The notes under the pieces were generated by a model. That model did no database searches. It saw nothing but the letters and a program-made list of their open reading frames with translations, and was not told the DNA's origin. The position numbers and the translations under genes are program-made. A DNA stretch of 30,004 nucleotides. It comes from a virus. Taxonomy: Duplodnaviria > Heunggongvirae > Uroviricota > Caudoviricetes. The stretch covers positions 1 through 30,004 of IMG/VR virus record IMGVR_UViG_2740892439_000007; one strand, given 5' to 3'. Positions within the stretch are counted from its first letter, which is position 1. Each line of letters starts with the position of its first letter. This document shows, piece by piece, positions 5,830 to 26,777 of the stretch.

Positions 5830-6188
5830 GAGTTGCAGATCACATCAAAAACCTTGAAAGAATTATCGAAAACGGTGAACTCTTAAGAGATCAGATGAGA
5901 CGCACGGCAGAAGTCAGAGAGGCGATAATTCGCAGTCAGGCTGGTAAATTAAAGCAATTGTCAGAGATTAACACGCTATACAAGAACAGACGTAACCGGG
6001 TGGCGCTGCGGCTTCAGAAAGCACGTAATGAAATTAAATTGGTGGAGGCAAAACTGAAAAAACAGATCCAGCGTTACGATCAGCAAGATGCTTTTTATGC
6101 CGCCATCAAGGCGGTTGCTAATGAAATAGGCATCTGGAAGTTGCTGGTGGAGGAAGCAAAGACGAAGTTAAATGCCAACGAAAGCTGA
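5826..6188 (+). CDS. Hypothetical basic coiled-coil protein (120 aa)
   Basis: ATGA overlap with the upstream gene; last gene of the coupled operon. Confidence 0.6.
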   Translation: MRVADHIKNLERIIENGELLRDQMRRTAEVREAIIRSQAGKLKQLSEINTLYKNRRNRVALRLQKARNEIKLVEAKLKKQIQRYDQQDAFYAAIKAVANEIGIWKLLVEEAKTKLNANES

Positions 6189-11112: not shown

Positions 11113-11282
11113 AGTGTATAAGCGGATCAATGAGTTACGGAAACAGTTAATAATGAGGAGCTTGTAATAAGCTGTATACCCTAGAAAAGCTAGACTAGGG
11201 AATAAAATGACGTGAAACTGGGCGGGACAGTAAATAATTCCGAATGATAATTGAACAAATAACCCCTTGCTCGGAGCTTGGA

Positions 11283-12482
11283 ATGACTGATACCGCTTTT
11301 TCAAAATCGTTACAAAAAGAAGTCGATCCTGAGCAGTACTTGGCGCTAAAGAATTTAGATGACAGCTCGGTTCATGCTATTGCCCGTGACGATATCATCT
11401 GCCCCATTTGCAAAGTTGGAGGTGGTTCGTTCGTTAGAGCCACTAGGAATGGTGGCTATCACAAGAAGGCGCATTTCAGATTTACCGGTGAAGATGGTCA
11501 AGGCCATCATCCATCATGTGATTTCTATGGAGATAGATTAACATCTGAGGTGAAGCAGCACCTTGTCTCATTCACAAAAGATCGAACAAAGTATTCGCAG
11601 GTAATACGAAAGCTGGTCTGTGCCGGCATACAGGAAGGGATATTTACTCAAGAAAAAATGTGGCAGATGAGGGAATGGTTCTTCAATAAGCGAAAGGATT
11701 CCACATTTGAAATATGGTTAGAAAGCGAGCATTTAGACTGGCTTTATTATATTAGTGGGTTACGTGATGCATATCTAGCATGGACAACTCCTGATATTCT
11801 ACCTTTCGCGCCCATTCAGGTTACTGTCCCTGGTTTTTCTTGGAGGCGTGCGATTGACAAAGAGGTGCTAAGAGTTCACATCAAGACTCTCCAGCAATTG
11901 CGTGAAATTTCAGTCTCACATAGTGACATTGCTGTAATCTTAGAACACATAAACAATAATCGTGACCGCACAATTCTCGATCCATCGCATTTGGAGGACG
12001 AGATAAGTAAGACCTATAAGCTTACTAGTTTTGTGATGGGCAATTACATTGAGTTTCAGACAAAAACGGTTAGCGACAGAGCATACGGGGAAGCTAAGTT
12101 TCTGGCATTTGCAGCACTTTTGTTGTTCGTGTCAGATTGGGACCTCAACATTGCTATTGGTAAGTTTTCTAAGATTGCCAGAGTGAAGGAGGTTGATGAC
12201 ATGCTGGCTGGTAATTTCATTGGTCTTAATCCTTACTTCCGATACGACCTGGCTAATGCAGTGAAGAGATTGCAGGATAACTGGCCGATTGAATACCAAG
12301 AGTTGGAGCATTGGAATGTTGAGAAATCCATGCGTGACGCATATGAAAAGTGGCGTGCGACAGAGCTGAATTCGCTCCACCCCTATTGCCAGACTTGTAT
12401 ATTGCCAAACATGAGAAAGAAGTCGCACAAGACGAGCAAGTCAGGCAGTGGATTAAGAACGGGGATGTTTGATTGTAATTAG
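11283..12482 (+). CDS. Hypothetical protein (about 399 aa) with an N-terminal Cys/His cluster (CPICK ... HHPSCDF)
   Basis: ATG at 11283 has GGAG 6 nt upstream, whereas the track start at 11244 has no RBS; no family recognised. Confidence 0.65.
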   Translation: MTDTAFSKSLQKEVDPEQYLALKNLDDSSVHAIARDDIICPICKVGGGSFVRATRNGGYHKKAHFRFTGEDGQGHHPSCDFYGDRLTSEVKQHLVSFTKDRTKYSQVIRKLVCAGIQEGIFTQEKMWQMREWFFNKRKDSTFEIWLESEHLDWLYYISGLRDAYLAWTTPDILPFAPIQVTVPGFSWRRAIDKEVLRVHIKTLQQLREISVSHSDIAVILEHINNNRDRTILDPSHLEDEISKTYKLTSFVMGNYIEFQTKTVSDRAYGEAKFLAFAALLLFVSDWDLNIAIGKFSKIARVKEVDDMLAGNFIGLNPYFRYDLANAVKRLQDNWPIEYQELEHWNVEKSMRDAYEKWRATELNSLHPYCQTCILPNMRKKSHKTSKSGSGLRTGMFDCN

Positions 12483-12616
12483 CTTAATCAATCAGTTGAT
12501 AATGGCGGTCACAATTTGATTCTTTTCTATAAGAACCCGTTGATCGCCACTACTCCCCTCCCATACCAGCAATCACATCATTAAATATCAATAGGTTAAC
12601 GTTGTTTATACCAATA

Positions 12617-13330
12617 AGAAAACAACTAAATAACAGATCAACGAAACATCAACGCTTTCTCCCGATTTGGTCTAAAAAATTGACGTTATCACACATCACT
12701 TCTTATACCCGTAATTCTACGCAGCAGATAGCGCCACAGCGTCCAAATTTCACCACAAACGACTCAACACACTACCAACAAAAACACACGCTCAAAATCG
12801 CTCCCGTTGCGTTACACAACCATATAAACAACTTATTTTCAGGCATAACAAAACAACTAAATAACACATATGACATTCCCCAAAACAACCAACCTCTTTA
12901 TGGCAGGCTACCGAAAAGACCCACCTCTTCTCCCCAGGCTACCGGACAACCAACCTAACTTTCACAGGCAATCCGAAAACATTCATACGCGCGATACCCA
13001 CGACACGCCATTCCCCAAACAGCGAAGAAACACCAGAATCACTGAAACCCCAACGAAGCCTGTTACCGCAAGGATTCTCTCAATCCCAAAAGACACGAAA
13101 CATAACAATCACGGGAAACGCCATTACCCAATACACGAATAACTACAAAAGCCCTTCACGCACTCCAGACAAACAACTCAAACACAATAACGAAAGCAAT
13201 CGCCCACCTGCCATTACTCCATACACGGAGAAGAACAATCACCAAAACGACGAGAACACCCCATAGAAGAACCACCGCAAAACGAACGAAACCATTTACA
13301 CCGACAGAGAGAACAACACACCCAATTCAC
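12617..13330 (+). other. About 0.7-kb noncoding tract with strong A+C strand bias (roughly 75 percent A+C on the plus strand) and internal repeats
   Basis: Hand counts on two 60-nt lines gave 75 and 77 percent A+C; track ORFs here are low-complexity P/T/N/Q/H-rich translations. Confidence 0.7.
12888..12981 (+). repeat. Three tandem ~30-bp direct repeats (CCACCTCTT...CCAGGCTACCG family)
   Basis: Units at about 12888-12920, 12921-12950, 12951-12981; same family as 15811-15900. Confidence 0.6.
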
Positions 13331-13466
13331 CAACAGAAATAGTCGCCGTATAGAACATTCTGGAAGGAGTGAGCATTAACGCCTATAGAGAGGTTGAGAC
13401 AGATAAACACGAAGAAAACACAACATGTATAGCGAAGAAGCCAGGTATGTATAAGTGGGGAGGGAA

Positions 13467-13488
13467 GGAGGGGTGTCGCCTCCTTTTT
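13467..13488 (+). terminator. Hairpin plus T5 terminator candidate at the end of the AC-rich/purine-rich noncoding tract
   Basis: ggagg ggtgtcg cctcc followed by TTTTT. Confidence 0.45.
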
Positions 13489-13547
13489 CGTATTTATTCA
13501 ACTCCTGATTTTATCCCCCGTAACACCCCTACGGTCAGCCTTCGGTC

Positions 13548-13700
13548 CATACAGGGAAAAGGCTGCATCCCGCTACAGAAACGGCTGGGTTGCCTTCGGG
13601 GAACGGCTGGAGGTTTTCAGGGAAACGGTCGAGTTGCCTGTGTGGATTTCGGGAAAAGGCTCGATGCCGGTTCAGGAACGGTGGCGTACCGGTATAGCGA
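13548..13700 (+). repeat. Iteron array: six direct repeats with core GG(G)AAA(C/A)GG at about 22-bp periodicity
   Basis: Cores at about 13564, 13587, 13608, 13630, 13661, 13685. Confidence 0.65.
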
Positions 13701-13998
13701 GAGGGAGAGTTGCGGCTACCCACCTGTAATGTGCGGGAAGAAGAGAGGCGCTCACGTGCAGGCGGACTAACTTACCGTTGGACTCCCTCTGAATGCCCAA
13801 CTACAGCGTAATTGTGCCAGAGAGTCAGCGGGTCACAATCGATTTCAGTAGGTTTTCGGGGAGAGGATTATTCTGCCCACCAGCCACTTTCGGCCACCAA
13901 ATCAGAATAATGTAAAAAGTGTACTCGGTACTGAACCTGAAAACTCACTGCCAAAACCACATTCACCGGAATAAAATCCTTTTTCGCCTGTGCGTTAT

Positions 13999-14375: not shown

Positions 14376-14481
14376 TCCCAACCAAAGCCAGCATTGCTGG
14401 CTTAATTTCTCTATAGCCGCAGGGAAGAACCTACATATCGCTCATGCACCTGATCAATATGCTTTGTAGCCGTTTTCTTAC

Positions 14482-15494: not shown

Positions 15495-15776
15495 ATGACC
15501 GATTTCACCATCTCCCCGAAAGAAGAAAACGTATGGCTGGAATCCTGGCTTGACCTGTCGCCGGCCGAGCAGAAAGAAATGGATCACGTCGAACCGGACG
15601 AACAAACCAGCTCCCGCTTCTTCCATTATCAGGATAGCGTTTATGACATTGCCGATTTCATGCGCGATGACCGCTTCCCGGAATGGCACGCCGGCTATCC
15701 ACTGAATGCCTTCGCTATGCTGATGATCCGCGTGACAGATTCAGGCGACGCCATCGACATCGGATTACTTCATTGA
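15495..15776 (+). CDS. Hypothetical small acidic protein (93 aa)
   Basis: ATG with gagga RBS; Asp/Glu-rich. Confidence 0.65.
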   Translation: MTDFTISPKEENVWLESWLDLSPAEQKEMDHVEPDEQTSSRFFHYQDSVYDIADFMRDDRFPEWHAGYPLNAFAMLMIRVTDSGDAIDIGLLH

Positions 15777-15810
15777 GAGGGGAGGGCCACCGATGCTGGT
15801 GGCCATCAAT

Positions 15811-15900
15811 TACCACCTGCTTTCCCGCAGGCTAAAAACACCCACCTCTTACCGCCAGGCTACCGAAGCACCCACCTGTTCCCGTCCGGCTACCGCAACT
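15811..15900 (+). repeat. Three exact-period 30-bp tandem direct repeats (cCCACCTnnTTnCCnnCaGGCTAcc...)
   Basis: Units at 15811-15840, 15841-15870, 15871-15900; related to 12888-12981. Confidence 0.65.
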
Positions 15901-15928
15901 TTCCACTTTGACGCCTTATTCGTACAAC

Positions 15929-15961
15929 GATAATTAATACCAACAAGAAAACAATTTGTTA
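15929..15961 (+). promoter_or_regulatory. -10 GATAAT (15929-15934) plus operator AAACAA-T-TTGTTA (15949-15961)
   Basis: Same cassette family. Confidence 0.55.
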
Positions 15962-15981: not shown

Positions 15982-16464
15982 ATGAATTTTATCGCTACTG
16001 TAAACGCACCCGCACATGGCAATATCGCTGTAACGTTCTCTGACATTGAAAAACGAGTACTTGGTGCATGGCGCGACAATGAGACGGTAGAACTGTCAGC
16101 ACAAGAAAAATGCATTATTGCACGCGACATCATTGGCAATCGTCGTTACTCGCGGGTATTTGAGAAAGCGTATGTGGTAAATTCTGGATTCGGAACGTTC
16201 GTCTTTCCGGTGCGCTCCGGGCGATTCTGCCAGTCCAAGCTGATTGAGTTCGCTACGCAGATTTCTGTCTGGATTAAAACTCAATCGTCGTTCAAATTTT
16301 CCGACGATGAAGCAGTATCGCAGGGGATGCGAATCGCCAACAATGCGATTAAATGCAAAAACATTACGTATACCGCTGGCGTTGACACATGGAAACTGTT
16401 TTGCGCTAACTTTATGCTGAATGTATACGCAAGCAACCGCATCCACATCCTTGATGGCGTGTAA
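15982..16464 (+). CDS. Hypothetical protein (160 aa)
   Basis: ATG 21 nt after the operator; terminator follows. Confidence 0.65.
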   Translation: MNFIATVNAPAHGNIAVTFSDIEKRVLGAWRDNETVELSAQEKCIIARDIIGNRRYSRVFEKAYVVNSGFGTFVFPVRSGRFCQSKLIEFATQISVWIKTQSSFKFSDDEAVSQGMRIANNAIKCKNITYTAGVDTWKLFCANFMLNVYASNRIHILDGV

Positions 16465-16471
16465 CTGAGAA

Positions 16472-16496
16472 GAGGGCCAGAAACGGCCCTTTCTCT
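16472..16496 (+). terminator. Terminator candidate (gggcc agaaac ggccc + TTTCTCT)
   Basis: Hairpin 8 nt after the stop of CDS 15982-16464. Confidence 0.55.
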
Positions 16497-16513
16497 ATAG
16501 CCACCAGCTGCCG

Positions 16514-16629
16514 CAGGGAAATTTTCAGAAACGGCGAGGAACGTATTCATGAGCCGACGGGAAACGGCCAGGATTTTTTCGGGAAACGGCTGCATTCGCC
16601 TTTATGTAGAAAAACATCGGGAAGCTGGT
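16514..16629 (+). repeat. Second iteron array (GGGAAACGGC-type, about five units, two of them exactly 22 bp apart at 16559 and 16581)
   Basis: Same core as the 13548-13700 array. Confidence 0.6.
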
Positions 16630-16717
16630 GGAATCCAACCAGCGGTTGTCGGACAGGTGAGCGGGGAAAATCATGATGACTTTCGTCGCCTGAGACATCC
16701 AGATTTCTTTCGTAGCG

Positions 16718-16735
16718 TAATCACATATGTGATTA
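16718..16735. promoter_or_regulatory. Perfect 18-bp palindrome TAATCACATATGTGATTA
   Basis: Exact dyad; a further TGTGATTATGTGA...TCAC repeat lies immediately downstream. Confidence 0.4.
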
Positions 16736-16878
16736 AGTGGTGTGATTATGTGAAAAATCACGCGCACATAATACGCGAGCGGATACGGAACAAAACAAAA
16801 TGCCGATCCGCGCCGACAAATAAACGCGGATCATAAAGCAAGACTAAAAGCCAATGATTAACCATACTCTATAGCGCA

Positions 16879-18303: not shown

Positions 18304-18828
18304 TTAAAATGGAAGGATTCGTTCAACCCAATCGAAGAAAACAAGTATTTTTCTGCCGTCTTCTAACTTAAGAGTGACCTGGCAAGCATCAACGCCTCTT
18401 GACACCCCTTCAATTTCACGACCGTCTGCCATGTAGACCCTTATAGATTGGTCGTTTTGATAAGCCTTGCGACATATCGCAAAAAAGTCACGGCGTGATG
18501 GCTGATTGTCAACATAGTCTGGATGTATTGTTAGCCTACCTTTGAACTCGCGAGCAATGCCATCGATTACACCTGATTCAATTGTGCTAATGCGCTCAAG
18601 TGGGAGTCTTATACGATTTTCTTTATCATATGGAAGCGGGCATAAATCTAGCTTATTGCGGGAAGGCATTGTCCCCTGAACGTACATGCAAAACACCTGA
18701 CCGTCTTCAAGCGTGACTCTTACAGGAATGTTGTTCTTCCGCCAGAACATAAGTATGTTTTCAGCATGTTCGTAGTCTCGCGGCCAGACTTCAGCCGGTA
18801 TGCCGTAGGTGATGTCCGATGTTCTCAT
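18304..18828 (-). CDS. Tandem Rof (YaeO)-like domain protein (174 aa)
   Basis: Two internal repeats each resembling E. coli Rof as recalled (DY...LEDG ... ExRxRLxxIS/T): VRVTLEDGQVF...ENRIRLPLERISTI and IRVYMADGREI...VTLKLEDGRKILVFFDWVERI. Confidence 0.55.
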   Translation of the reverse strand: MRTSDITYGIPAEVWPRDYEHAENILMFWRKNNIPVRVTLEDGQVFCMYVQGTMPSRNKLDLCPLPYDKENRIRLPLERISTIESGVIDGIAREFKGRLTIHPDYVDNQPSRRDFFAICRKAYQNDQSIRVYMADGREIEGVSRGVDACQVTLKLEDGRKILVFFDWVERILPF

Positions 18829-19879: not shown

Positions 19880-21438
19880 CTAATCTCGTTTCAGAACTCC
19901 AAAATCGAATGCGCCATCAATAGGCAATACACCTTCTGCAAAGCCAGGTGTGGTGTCGATGATGTGTTTTCGCTCATAAGAGTGAGACAACAGGTATTTG
20001 TTGCTAATGTCAATGAAATCAGTGATAAAACACACGTTTGCCTGATTCTTCTTGGCTCGTAAGCCACGACCGACACGCTGCCTCATTTCAACTTCTGCTT
20101 TCCCACCACCAGCCAGAATGACCGCACCAACGCTTGGCACATCAACACCGACATCCAGAATAGTCGAGCCTATTAAAACATCTATTTCGCCAGACGCTAA
20201 ACTGTTCAGCTTTGCTTGCCTTGTCGCCTGGTTTGATTCCCCATAGATGAAGTCAACTCTAAGGCCGGACTCCTTCATCATCTCCATCAGGATTTGCCCG
20301 TGGCGTTTAAGACGAACCAGAGTCATGCAATTGAGAGAATGTTGCTTATAGAGCAATGCTTCGCGCACAATGGCCTCGTTACGTCCCAAATTATACACGA
20401 TCCCCAACTGATAAGCCTTTTGGTAGGCTGTGCTCATACCTACTCTAAAATTGAGGTGTTTGTTGGCAAGTTCGGCTTGATTCTGGCCTCGTCTGGCTTG
20501 TAGGCAACTTTATGATAAAGGAAGTATGGTTTTGCCAGAATGCCTCTATCAATCAGGTACTTTTCCGTGACTTTTATTTCAATTCGCCCGGCCACTGCCA
20601 TCAGGCGCATGTTGGCTTCCGTCGAATCCTTCATGAACGGCGTGGCTGTAAGCGCCAGACGATAGTCTGCGTTCACACATAATCTGGCGATGTCATAGAA
20701 ATTAGAGCCTGAAGACTCATGCGCCTCTTCCAGAATAAGAAGAGAGACACTTGAAAGGAAGCGTTTCACCAACTCCCGACGTTTGAGGTGGTAGCTTTTC
20801 TTATCTGGTGTTGCATCGCGTGGTGGTTCTTCGAGGAAACTTGCAAGAGTTTGAACTGTAGCGACGTTGATATGTCGTGATACCTGGAACTCACCCGAGC
20901 CAATTACTCCAACCTTTTGGTCCTTTAACCACGGTTCGCCATTTTCGGCGCGGTAGTCGATGGATCTCTGGAAGTTTTCGGCCATTTGAAACATCAGAAC
21001 AGAGCGGGTTGTTAAAAATAATGTCATTCGACCGATACGTGCAGCTGCTTTGCAGGCAACGTTAGATTTCCCGCCACCAGTAGCGATCTGCGCAATCATC
21101 ATTCCCTCTCGAACCAGTGTTTCTACTGTCTGATCTTGGTACGCATAATCAGGGTTGTATGGAAATGGGTTAACCGCCGGATTTGGTTTACCCAGCGCCG
21201 GGGCTTTGTCTTTGCGGATATGAACACATTTGATGCCCGCCTTGTTCAAATTAGCCGCCACGGGCTTGGCAAAGCCAGCAGGGAACGAGTTTTTGCTCCA
21301 GTTGAACATTGTGCTTGTGCCCTTCCAGTCGCCAGCCTCGACTTCGTAGCTCAACATTTGCTGCACCAGTTGCTTTACCTTGTCATCTGCGCCAGAAATA
21401 AGCGCATTTACTGCGTTAGATACAATCCGAACAGTCAT
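19880..21438 (-). pseudogene. SF2 DExH-type helicase interrupted by a -1 frameshift (N-terminal part 20440-21438, C-terminal part 19880-20437)
   Basis: Motifs I (ATGGGKS), II (LILEEAHE) and III (LTATP) lie in the upstream ORF and motif VI (QRVGRGLR) in the downstream ORF; the frames change at a T4 run (plus-strand AAAA near 20447). Confidence 0.75.
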
Positions 21439-22201: not shown

Positions 22202-22869
22202 TGACCAAAAAGTTTGAAATCGTATATCGCGACCCGGCAGATCTTATTCCCTATGAGATGAATGCCAAAAAGCATGATGAACAGCAGATCCGAGATCTGG
22301 CCGCAGCCATTAAAAAGCGCGGATTTGACCAGCCAATTACGGTCGATAAGAACGACGTAATTATTACTGGCCACGGCCGCCGTGAGGCTGCAATTTTTGC
22401 TGGACTTGAGCGCGTACCGGTTATTGTTCGCGATGATCTCAGTGATGACGAGGTTCGTGCGAAGCGTCTTGAAGATAACCGACTTGCCAGCATTGATTAC
22501 GATGCAATTAAGCTACAAAAAGAGCTTGAGTCGCTTGTTCTGGACGATATCGAGGTTTTCGGCTTTGAAGAGCGTGAGTTGAATGTTCTCGTTGGCAGTA
22601 TGACAGAAGAAATGGACACCGACTCGCTAGTTATCGATCTTGGCGAAGAAACTAAACGACAGAAGGATGAACACACCGAGATCAGTCGTGAAGTTGCAGC
22701 GGAAGAAGTACGTGTTGTCGACGTATTGGGCTTTAAAACGCTCCCTGCTGGCTCTGCCATTGTTGTTGGTGATTTGCTTGCCCATATGGAAGAAATGACG
22801 GGAGAAAGCGGGGTAGACGCATTTGTGGCATATGCGGAGAAGATCTCTTCCGGGGAGATGGCTGCATGA
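22201..22869 (+). CDS. ParB-like nuclease domain protein 2
   Basis: PYEMNAKKH and IITGHGRREAA motifs; TAATG overlap with the upstream gene and AGGAG RBS. Confidence 0.7.
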   Translation: MTKKFEIVYRDPADLIPYEMNAKKHDEQQIRDLAAAIKKRGFDQPITVDKNDVIITGHGRREAAIFAGLERVPVIVRDDLSDDEVRAKRLEDNRLASIDYDAIKLQKELESLVLDDIEVFGFEERELNVLVGSMTEEMDTDSLVIDLGEETKRQKDEHTEISREVAAEEVRVVDVLGFKTLPAGSAIVVGDLLAHMEEMTGESGVDAFVAYAEKISSGEMAA

Positions 22870-23530
22870 GCAAATACATCATCAACGTATCGTTTCAGAC
22901 ACGCGTAAATAAAACCACGCGCACGTTGGAAATCGCTGAGTCGTTCGGGCTTGGCCTGGACGAAAAAGAGTGGACGCTTTACGACAATCTGGAGCTGGAA
23001 GTGAAGCAGGGCGATGTGGTGTACATCACCGGCCAATCCGGTTCCGGCAAATCCGTTGTGCTGCGCGAGTTGCAACGACAGATGAAGGATGAAGGGCTGT
23101 CTGTAGCTCCATCGATGATTTTACCTTCGATAATGAGGTTAACGTCATCGATCAGTTGGGCAAAACGACCAGCGATGCGCTTGGGTTGTTATCTATGGCA
23201 GGTCTGAACGATGCATATCTGTTTGTTCGCAAGCCTTCTGAAATGTCAGACGGTCAGAAATATCGTCTCAAGATTGCCAAACTGATTGAGTCAGGCGCTA
23301 AAGTGTGGGCTGCTGACGAGTTCGGTGCTGTTCTAGACCGTGTAACCGCTCAGGTTGTGGCATCTAACCTCCAGCGTGCCGCTCGAAAGGTTGGTGCGAC
23401 GGTAATGGTGGCGACGACTCACGAAGACCTGAAGAACGCGCTGCGCCCGGATATGCAGATCACCAAGCACTACAAAGAACGCGCGAAGGTGGAATATCAC
23501 AATGGTAGTCATGATGAGGTTCATTTATGA
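22866..23530 (+). pseudogene. ABC-type P-loop ATPase interrupted by a -1 frameshift
   Basis: Walker A (GQSGSGKS) lies in frame 1; signature-like MSDGQK, Walker B (VWAADEF) and H-loop (TTHED) lie in frame 2; the frames switch near GGG at 23094-23096. Confidence 0.7.
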
Positions 23531-24889: not shown

Positions 24890-25522
24890 ATGACGGTCGA
24901 AAAAGACGAGGTAAAAACTCGCCTGACACCAGCGGAGTGGGCCGAAGCTGAAGCCAAATGGACGTCAGGCGAATATACACTCTCAAAGCTGGAGGAAGAG
25001 TACGGCATTCGTCGTGAAACACTCTCCAGACATTTCAAAAAGCGAGGATTAGAGAAAGGCGCGGACTCTGTTGGGAAGATGGTTCGTGAGTCTCTTAAAT
25101 CTGACGCAGAGCTTCGCGCTAAAGCCCGTGCGGAAAAGATAGAAGAACGTCGTACACGTTATGACGGCTGGGCGTATGCGTTGGGGCAGATGGTGATGGT
25201 CGAAGTCACTACGGCCAAACGTGAGAGTAAGCCTTTAGGGGCGATTGAGGATTCTCTCAAGAGCTTACAGAGAGCCAGTAATACCCTTGCAAAATGCTTT
25301 GAAGTTTCGTCCAAAGCATTGGGCATGGATCATGCGGAAAATGACGAGGAAGAAATTCCGAACCTGGTATTTGGTGAGCTTACACCTTCCCAGGTGGCGA
25401 AATTACGTCAGGAAGACGACGAGCCTGAAATCATCGATGACGAATTGCTTGAGACGTTGGAAGAAGAAGCTCTAAGCGAATTTGATGCGACAGATGATGG
25501 AAGTGAAGGGGAGGACGAATAA
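24890..25522 (+). CDS. Terminase small subunit candidate (210 aa)
   Basis: Position directly upstream of TerL; acidic C-terminal tail; stop overlaps the TerL start. Confidence 0.6.
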   Translation: MTVEKDEVKTRLTPAEWAEAEAKWTSGEYTLSKLEEEYGIRRETLSRHFKKRGLEKGADSVGKMVRESLKSDAELRAKARAEKIEERRTRYDGWAYALGQMVMVEVTTAKRESKPLGAIEDSLKSLQRASNTLAKCFEVSSKALGMDHAENDEEEIPNLVFGELTPSQVAKLRQEDDEPEIIDDELLETLEEEALSEFDATDDGSEGEDE

Positions 25523-26777
25523 TGGCAATCCCGTCCTCGCTCAGTCTTGTGCAACTGCATTCTGGACAGATGAAAGTCTTCCAGTCTCCGCATCGATTTA
25601 AAGTTGTTTGTGCTGGTCGACGCTGGGGAAAATCCCGGTTGTCGATCTCCACTATTATTCGTGCGGCGGCAAAGGAAAAAAAGCAAAGGGTCTGGTATGT
25701 CGCTCCTACTTACCAGATGGCTCGCCAGATTTTGTGGGACGATCTACAGGAAGTTCTGCCTCGTAAGTGGGTTAGGAAAAAGAACGACACCACGATGACA
25801 ATCGTGTTGAAGAACGGTTCGGAGATCGCCCTCAAAGGTGCTGATAAGCCTGACACTCTGCGCGGCGTAGCGTTGCATTTTGTAGTGCTTGATGAATTTC
25901 AGGATATGAAGCTGACACCTGGTACAAGGTGTTACGACCTACTCTTTCATCGACACGCGGCGGTGCACTGATCATTGGTACGCCAAAAGGCTTCTCGGAA
26001 TTTCACAAACTGTGGACTATAGGCCAGAACGTAGAGTTGCAAAGAAAGGGACAGTGGAAGAGCTGGCAGTTTGTAACTGCCGATTCTCCGTTTGTACCTA
26101 CGGCGGAAATTGAAGCTGCTAAGAACGATATGGACCCCAAATCGTTCGCTCAGGAGTACCTGGCCAGCTTTGAGAACATGTCCGGGCGCGTTTACTACCC
26201 GTTCGATCGTAACGTGCATGTAAAACCGCTTCAGTTCAACCCTCGGTTGCCTATATGGGTAGGGCAGGACTTCAACATTGACCCGATGTCTTCAGTAATT
26301 TTGCAACCTCAGCCAAATGGTGAGCTATGGGCAATTGATGAATTGGTGCTCTTTTCCTCTAACACGGCAGAAGTTTGTGATGAGCTTGAGAGACGCTTCT
26401 GGCGCTGGAAATCACAGGTAACGGTATTTCCAGATCCGGCAGGTGCTTATCGCCAACATGCTCGTGGGGAGTCTGACGTAGACATATTCAAAGAGAAGGG
26501 ATTCTTACGTGTCGATTATTCGAAAAAGCACCCGCCAATTGCGGATCGTGTTAATGCTGTTAACCGAATGCTGATGTCCGCATCTGGAGATATCCGGCTG
26601 TATATCGATCCGAAGTGCAAGCATTTGATTGATTCACTGGAAAAAGTTATCTACAAGCCTGGAACACGAGATATGGATAAGACAGGTGGCATTGAGCATA
26701 GTGCAGACGCATTGGGCTATCCAGTACATCGTAGGTATCCAGTCAAAAACCGTGTTATTCTTGGTGGTTCTCGATAG
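25522..26777 (+). pseudogene. Terminase large subunit interrupted by a -1 frameshift
   Basis: Walker A (VVCAGRRWGKS) and Walker B (HFVVLDEF) in the first ORF; the second ORF's frame is open from 25896 and encodes the nuclease half. Confidence 0.8.

Follow-up and report, generated by a model that had tools for sequence, protein, structure and literature searches.

Paired arrays of about 30-bp tandem units in the early region of an SSU5/pHCM2-type phage-plasmid: candidate DNA sites for a regulator

What role is played by two sets of short direct repeats, located a few kilobases apart in the same orientation, one immediately 5' of a small gene's promoter and the other within an untranslated tract of unusual composition? 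The question is raised by a window of 30,004 nucleotides (the whole stretch of viral DNA analysed here), which contains the beginning of the packaging and head genes and an early region whose small genes each have a promoter to themselves. Around the repeats, about 4 kb of the window is 94–97% identical to the Escherichia phages Cyrano, CMS-2020a and PhiR41_1, about 87% identical to Klebsiella phage-plasmids and, over partial coverage only, 74.5% identical to Salmonella phage SSU5. Positions 11244–13400 match 366 plasmid records, the best match being to the E. coli plasmid NZ_CP020118.1 (111 kb, replicon typed IncFIB) with 99.7% identity. Judged by these matches, the window is a portion of an E. 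coli phage-plasmid of the SSU5/pHCM2 type, with a size of about 110 kb. Phage-plasmids of this type occur commonly in E. coli, Klebsiella, Salmonella and Enterobacter, some of them with resistance genes, and the way in which they change over between maintenance as a plasmid and lytic growth is all but uncharacterised. Three genes that are intact in relatives (those for a DEAD-box helicase, an ABC-type ATPase and the large terminase) are each present as two ORFs in the window; the split genes are located at 19880–21438 (minus strand), 22866–23530 (plus strand) and 25522–26777 (plus strand). Many single-base gaps also separate the window from NZ_CP020118, and together with the split ORFs these point either to sequencing errors or to a decaying element.

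A repeat search of the window reveals six in-register copies of one unit, starting at positions 12888, 12919, 12949, 15812, 15840 and 15870, all on the plus strand and arranged as two sets of three tandem units. Set A (12888–12975) is made up of units A1 (12888–12914), A2 (12919–12945) and A3 (12949–12975), with core units at 12888–12910, 12919–12941 and 12949–12971. Set B (15812–15896) is made up of B1 (15812–15836), B2 (15840–15866) and B3 (15870–15896), with core units at 15812–15834, 15840–15862 and 15870–15892. Of the six, B1 (in box 1, with one additional base) and A3 (which contains GGCAATCC) are degenerate. In B3, CCGGC replaces CAGGC, and B2 is near-invariant among relatives. The start-to-start spacing is 31 and 30 bp in set A and 28 and 30 bp in set B. 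For residues 15813–15893, Tandem Repeats Finder reports a period of 30 with 2.8 copies, 75% matches and 7% indels, and for the last two units of set B 85% matches with no indels. A preliminary description of this DNA had given set B an exact 30-bp period, placed it between two cassettes and noted a related triplet upstream in the A+C-rich tract. Both triplets are real and correctly placed, set A being found in the 5' part of the tract and set B being flanked by the ORFs 15495–15776 and 15982–16464, but the period is inexact, at 28–31 bp. The same description was right in setting aside a CRISPR array; the units abut head to tail with a period of 28–31 bp and without spacers, and the 4–5 linker bases between them are conserved in orthologues.

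The arrays stand out clearly from their genome. The degenerate pattern of the unit has four sites in the window versus 0.09 expected, and a position weight matrix trained on family members also finds four, where any one of five shuffled sequences gave at most one at the lowest threshold and none at higher thresholds. In the complete 111-kb NZ_CP020118, the weight matrix finds two clusters only, at 8.1 and 12.1 kb and on the same strand. Local alignment of set A with set B gives a score of 56, versus 15.2 ± 2.5 for 2000 shuffles (z = 16.6), by which measure the two sets are clearly paralogous; no similarity between them was found beyond the units.

Each unit is asymmetric and bipartite, with a box 1, ACC(C/A)ACCTCTT, followed by five freely varying bases and a box 2, CAGGCTACCG. 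The distance between the boxes is constant, with a five-base spacer that differs among units and orthologues, and the linkers between units vary in length by at most three bases. When unique sequences are compared (49 for set B, 59 for set A), only the five-base spacer and part of the linkers vary. Box 2 of B1 and the whole of B2 together form a stretch of about 43 almost invariant bases with variable flanks, and this near-continuous conservation of B2, a point against the DNA-level reading favoured below, exceeds the need of a simple two-box DNA site. Like set B as a whole (C 43%, G 15%), the units are C-rich and G-poor. Box 2 of A2 and of B2 contains a Dcm site (CCWGG). In one Klebsiella assembly (UWYA01000002, our L245), the units at about 2470–2520 and 5860–5880 read CCGCTACC or CCGGCTACC versus CCAGGCTACC in relatives; our guess is that this reflects a systematic base-calling error at Dcm sites in a long-read assembly.

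Scanning IMG/VR yielded 114 stretches with the pattern, nearly all from contigs of about 100–110 kb or their fragments. Where a stretch holds both clusters, these are on the same strand, 1.47–4.05 kb apart. Relatives from Salmonella, Klebsiella, Kluyvera and metagenomes have both arrays, oriented alike, and SSU5, Klebsiella pJN2-26 and the divergent contig L055 keep both; a contig scan with a loose pattern, of which most matches are due to chance, also gave two Kluyvera plasmid contigs. Arrays contain two to four units among relatives, and the unit spacing is 28–32 bp across all of them. In a distant lineage (L244, L316–L353), in which the 160-amino acid protein encoded next to set B is 51% identical, the set A position contains three units with a period of 29 (ACACC-N13-CAGGCA) and the set B position two diverged units. 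Box 1 is ACACCACTC in both of these arrays, and such an identical change in both is expected if a lineage-specific factor is shared by them.

Lack of conservation of the units in any related element had been set beforehand as a refutation test, and the units turned out to be clearly conserved across relatives. A1, A2 and B2 are among the most conserved noncoding stretches, in lineages whose flanks no longer align, and within the set A locus few 20-nt windows are as well conserved as A1 and A2. These observations bear on the possibility that the arrays are functionless leftovers of replication slippage or of a segmental duplication long ago. The paralogy of the arrays (z = 16.6), the variable number of units (two to four) and the degenerate state of the terminal units B1 and A3 would be expected of such leftovers. 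Against this, A1, A2 and B2 are highly conserved where flanks fail to align, the architecture persists at 51% protein identity, and the variation is restricted to the five-base spacer and part of the linkers. The earlier suggestion that these are remnants of a duplicated region is thus supported as far as origin is concerned but not with respect to decay: the units are near-invariant, the flanks diverge and the similarity stops at the units. In the alignments, a functionless remnant is contradicted by the pattern of conservation, and we consider it very improbable.

The surroundings of set B are constant on one side only. Upstream, a hairpin without a T-run (15785–15804, plus strand; stem GGCCACC and GGTGGCC, loop GATGCT) is located 3' of the ORF 15495–15776, and its stem is kept in relatives via compensatory changes (GGCCATCA/TGATGGCC). 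In other relatives, this upstream neighbour is a strong intrinsic terminator (L055) or an opposite-strand gene (SSU5). The hairpin contains a Chi site at 15795–15802, as it does in the distant lineage, and in SSU5- and Klebsiella-type relatives the third set B unit carries a Chi on the opposite strand; the 111-kb plasmid has 29 copies of Chi (GCTGGTGG) and the 30-kb window 12, where 0.75 would be expected. Downstream, set B ends 12 bp before the −35-like TTGACG (15908–15913) of a predicted sigma-70-like promoter (15908–15934, plus strand, with GATAAT at 15929–15934), identified from the sequence only. Next come a leader of the cassette type, which includes the palindrome AAACAATTTGTT, then a ribosome-binding site and, at 15982, the start codon of the 160-amino acid gene (15982–16464, plus strand, phrog_1641). 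The promoter is conserved in all lineages, the gene is located 3' of set B in every relative, and promoter and gene together directly follow set B in all 49 unique sequences. The 160-amino acid protein belongs to a family found in SSU5-like elements only; it has no match in Pfam, NCBIfam or PADLOC and none to a solved fold. In the transcriptome of the LF82/Cyrano lysogen, the gene (CYRAN_111) is moderately expressed (PMC9928086, S1 Table). No conserved promoter was predicted upstream of set B among relatives. Between lineages, the spacing of B2 from the promoter shifts by about 6 bp, with a larger shift in the distant lineage, which argues against a strictly face-dependent activator.

Set A has a different setting. 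A 412-amino acid ORF (11244–12482, phrog_12525) precedes a 1.3-kb stretch that is unannotated by RefSeq in the closest plasmid and is the largest gene-free conserved region here. It contains a putative promoter P1 (12680–12709, plus strand; TTGACG at 12680, an 18-nt spacer and TATACC at 12704), conserved in five of the five lineages read, and P2 (12807–12838, plus strand), a variant of the cassette-type promoter/operator (TTGCGTTACAC...AAACAACTTATTT). Set A is located about 180 nt 3' of P1 and 50 nt 3' of P2, and there is no conserved promoter 3' of set A among relatives; of the two arrays, set B holds a fixed position by a promoter and set A does not. At the predicted transcription start of P1 begins a gene-free A+C-rich tract of 635 nt (12716–13350, plus strand; A 40%, C 33%, G 12%, T 14%), with set A in its 5' part. 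This tract holds the most A+C-rich 300-nt window of the plasmid (0.757 versus 0.499 ± 0.039, 6.6 standard deviations above the mean) and is the only one of its kind in the closest complete plasmid. Its composition is kept in SSU5 and Klebsiella, its sequence is not. A coding repeat was rejected, since the unit lengths (31, 29 and 28) break the frame and the tract has no three-base periodicity and stops in every frame. A second repeat of the tract, GCCATTACCCAATACACGGAGAAGAAC, is present at 13007, 13120 and 13210, with six copies in SSU5 (L003, 2400–2800). Its core ACCCAATAC also occurs in the 5' leader of E. coli fliC (GGGTGGAAACCCAATACG, sequence verified), and a fljA-like gene (18304–18828, minus strand), coding for a full-length FljA homologue (PF03614, E = 5e-81), is present in all these elements. 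FljA is a repressor that binds fliC mRNA; as the chance of a random 9-mer match is about 0.2, the likeness to the fliC leader is only a lead.

The position of set A, 3' of promoters and in a strand-asymmetric tract, suits a role at the RNA level just as naturally as one at the DNA level. The units could act as unstructured RNA, so that early transcripts would offer single-stranded sites to an RNA-binding factor of the phage or the host; a complex for antitermination or against Rho might load there, for example, or a long A+C-rich RNA started at P1 might titrate a protein. We regard this as rather unlikely, although worth keeping in mind. In its favour, set A lies 3' of P1 and P2 at the 5' end of 635 nt of untranslated, C-rich and G-poor sequence, the units match the tract in this composition, and their orientation with respect to early transcription is constant in every relative. 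A C-rich, G-poor composition is typical of Rho loading sites, and that of the tract is what a very strong one would look like. Box 1 of B2 (CCUCUUAC) moreover resembles the 3' end of 16S rRNA and lambda boxA, CGCUCUUA. Set B, however, is located upstream of the conserved promoter of its gene and, in L055, behind a strong terminator, so that no consistent transcript carries it. A hairpin equivalent to boxB is absent, and the loss of CUCUU in the distant lineage makes a boxA-like role for host NusB/NusE fail. Furthermore, CYRAN_103, the ORF called over the set A region in LF82/Cyrano, has a log2(FPKM+5) of 2.32 in LB, equivalent to no reads, and is low in all conditions, also when neighbouring cassettes rise (PMC9928086, S1 Table); the region is thus silent in lysogens, under conditions short of full lytic induction.

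Folding of the arrays gave z-scores from −0.94 to +0.55 on both strands when compared to shuffles, by which a structured RNA was rejected. In Rfam 15, the window has no match at gathering thresholds, and the arrays have none up to an E-value of 5.

Downstream of each array is a second type of repeat. About six GGGAAA(A/C)GG motifs with a spacing of around 22 nt are located at 13552–13690 (plus strand), 666 nt 3' of set A, and another GGGAAACGG array at 16520–16640 (plus strand), about 750 nt 3' of set B. In every lineage, including SSU5, Klebsiella and the distant lineage, a unit array is accompanied by a G-rich array some 670–790 nt further downstream. The ORFs over the G-rich arrays (13369–13770 and 16549–16836) translate into implausible proteins. 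By analogy, these arrays look either iteron-like or like the GGA-rich RNAs of the CsrB type; RNAalifold applied to the downstream G-rich region gave a positive, penalising covariation term, and we claim no conserved structure there. A bolder proposal would unite the unit arrays, the A+C-rich tract and the two GGGAAACGG arrays in one undescribed control locus. In it, a long unstructured A+C-rich early RNA with three 30-nt motifs and GCCAUUACCCAAUAC repeats would capture or load a specific protein, such as a host protein that binds RNA, or a factor acting in antitermination or against Rho, and set B would be the same handle placed before the next transcription unit. We think it improbable that the locus works in this manner.

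The presence of two repeat clusters, each accompanied by an iteron-like array, also brings DNA maintenance into consideration. The arrays could form a bipartite lytic origin like P4 ori/crr, a dispersed centromere like those of N15 or pSM19035, terminase sites or the boundaries of terminal repeats. They are direct repeats in two clusters a few kilobases apart, each with a GGGAAACGG array of about 22-nt spacing, and the 1.3-kb locus is, as mentioned, the largest gene-free conserved region and has a unique composition. The parA-like gene lacks an adjoining repeat array, and the lytic origin, centromere and virion ends of SSU5-like elements are not described in the searchable literature. On the other hand, the RepA iterons of the plasmid are different (CTCTCTATAGTGGATA, with 21-bp spacing) and about 30 kb away, the par-like genes are about 40 kb and the terminase genes about 9 kb off, we noticed neither DnaA boxes nor an AT-rich unwinding element at the arrays, and the locus shows no GC skew switch. 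A maintenance function is, in our estimation, doubtful.

Two more specific identities of this kind were rejected. The arrays are not the RepA iterons of the IncFIB-pHCM2/IncpKPHS1 type; repA is located at 84.7–85.7 kb of NZ_CP020118, the weight matrix finds no unit near it, and the known iterons sit 48–218 bp from repA (PMC6735626). Neither are they a plasmid centromere beside partition genes, the parA-like gene being at 53 kb of the plasmid with no unit and no other repeat array there. The sequence CTCTATAGC, found after cassette terminator hairpins at 14404–14417, 16488–16501 and 16862–16875 and inverted at 13383, has a core in common with the RepA iterons.

Each small early gene is preceded by a conserved promoter/leader (TGCGATAAT...ACCAACAAGAAAACAAGTTGTTTAAGGA) with the palindrome AAACAAGTTGTTT, which is likely an operator. 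These elements are located at 245, 10783, 12606, 12812, 14007, 14491, 15398, 15449 and 15935. Mosaic breakpoints with respect to the closest plasmid fall at such elements (14025 and 15416), which suggests that the cassette promoters may double as cassette-exchange junctions. The arrays are not recombination hot spots, as the breakpoints are not located at them, and the recombination signal proposed in the preliminary description found no support.

Of the roles considered, the one we favour, at somewhat less than even confidence, is that the arrays are helically phased DNA sites for a putative phage-encoded regulator that would control early genes. A regulator-binding role had been among the first suggestions, and it is retained as the favoured reading, although a search of the neighbourhood for a candidate binding factor speaks against it, none of the neighbouring proteins having a recognisable DNA-binding domain. 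The boxes at a fixed distance, the free spacer between them, the period of about three turns, the three copies and the concerted change of box 1 point to a sequence-specific factor common to both arrays. Three observations make duplex DNA the favoured target: the constant partner of set B is the promoter 3' of it and not any upstream transcript, the RNA has no predicted structure, and in lysogens the region of set A is silent. The unit spacing is close to whole helical turns: a period of 28–31 bp is about three of these, and would place bound proteins on roughly one face of the DNA, where they might bind cooperatively. Both arrays would then be occupied by the same sequence-specific factor, which is most likely a DNA-binding protein with its gene on the phage-plasmid itself. 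From set B it would control the adjoining promoter of the 160-amino acid gene, and from set A, in the leader of the A+C-rich transcription unit, it would block or modulate transcription from P1 and P2. The factor may also bridge the arrays, which are 1.5–4 kb apart in the same orientation, thereby looping the variable early-gene cassettes, as is known for lambda OL/OR.

Nowhere else in the genome is this strongly conserved motif found; the two arrays bracket the variable early cassettes and adjoin a compositionally unique tract. This uniqueness and position offer a concrete way into the early control circuit, with the arrays serving as a probe for the factor and as sites to mutate. A factor that acts on RNA, or a lytic origin at this locus, would make the finding more unusual; for now, we describe an uncharacterised cis element of conventional appearance.

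Several further candidates were tried and rejected. ARN runs are no commoner than the composition predicts, unlike in an Hfq (ARN)n sponge, and a purine/pyrimidine alignment with the region of the 160-amino acid gene scores below shuffles, so the arrays are not a transition-hypermutated copy of it. No reverse-complement unit is present anywhere in the plasmid, which excludes an antisense target as in P4 immunity, and a diversity-generating retroelement was rejected because no reverse transcriptase is seen in the plasmid annotation. The box spacing is, we reason, unsuitable for a sigma-54 or other alternative promoter. The ops/JUMPStart element of RfaH, GGCGGTAGnnTG, is located on the non-template strand of long operon leaders; the reverse complement of box 2, CGGTAGCCTG, matches at most 10 of 12 ops positions, lacks the leading GG and is on the strand opposite to early transcription.

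Comparison with known systems shows partial likenesses to several. With ToxIN, set B shares short tandem repeats directly before a gene of about 160–170 codons. ToxI repeats measure 36 nt, and those of set B differ in having no predicted structure; moreover, the 160-amino acid protein has no ToxN/AbiQ signature (Pfam, PADLOC) or fold match, so a type III toxin-antitoxin system was rejected. The ToxIN layout was also rejected, because the conserved promoter is predicted 3' of set B, before the gene, and none is predicted upstream of set B. Like lambda nut and rrn boxA, there are two sites per early region, oriented along transcription, one of which starts a C-rich, Rho-prone untranslated stretch, and B2 has CUCUUAC in common with lambda boxA. 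However, the boxA consensus is (C/U)GCUCUU(U)A, whereas the units read ACCUCUU(A/C/U) without the invariant G, and CUCUU is lost in the distant lineage; there is no boxB hairpin, there are three copies instead of one, and set B is upstream of its promoter. These units were therefore rejected as nut or rrn boxA sites. Plasmid and phage iterons, including P4 ori/crr, are likewise asymmetric direct repeats in two separate clusters, with a copy number that varies among relatives, but the period of our arrays is about 30 bp versus about 22 bp, no initiator gene adjoins them, and the plasmid's own RepA iterons are different and 30 kb off.

In the OmpR sites F1-F2-F3 at ompF and in lambda OL/OR, as in set B, three adjacent direct sites are located just 5' of a promoter. 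As in lambda, a second triplet is present a few kilobases away in the same genome, and the spacing is close to an integral number of helical turns. OmpR units measure about 20 bp and the lambda operators are 17-bp palindromes, with OL and OR looping over 2.4 kb; our units differ in being 30-bp, asymmetric and bipartite, set A is located in a leader predicted to be transcribed and not at a promoter, and looping is here a conjecture. Our search of the literature gave no description of these arrays, and they look like an uncharacterised member of a familiar class, the tandem, phased binding-site arrays of phage control regions.
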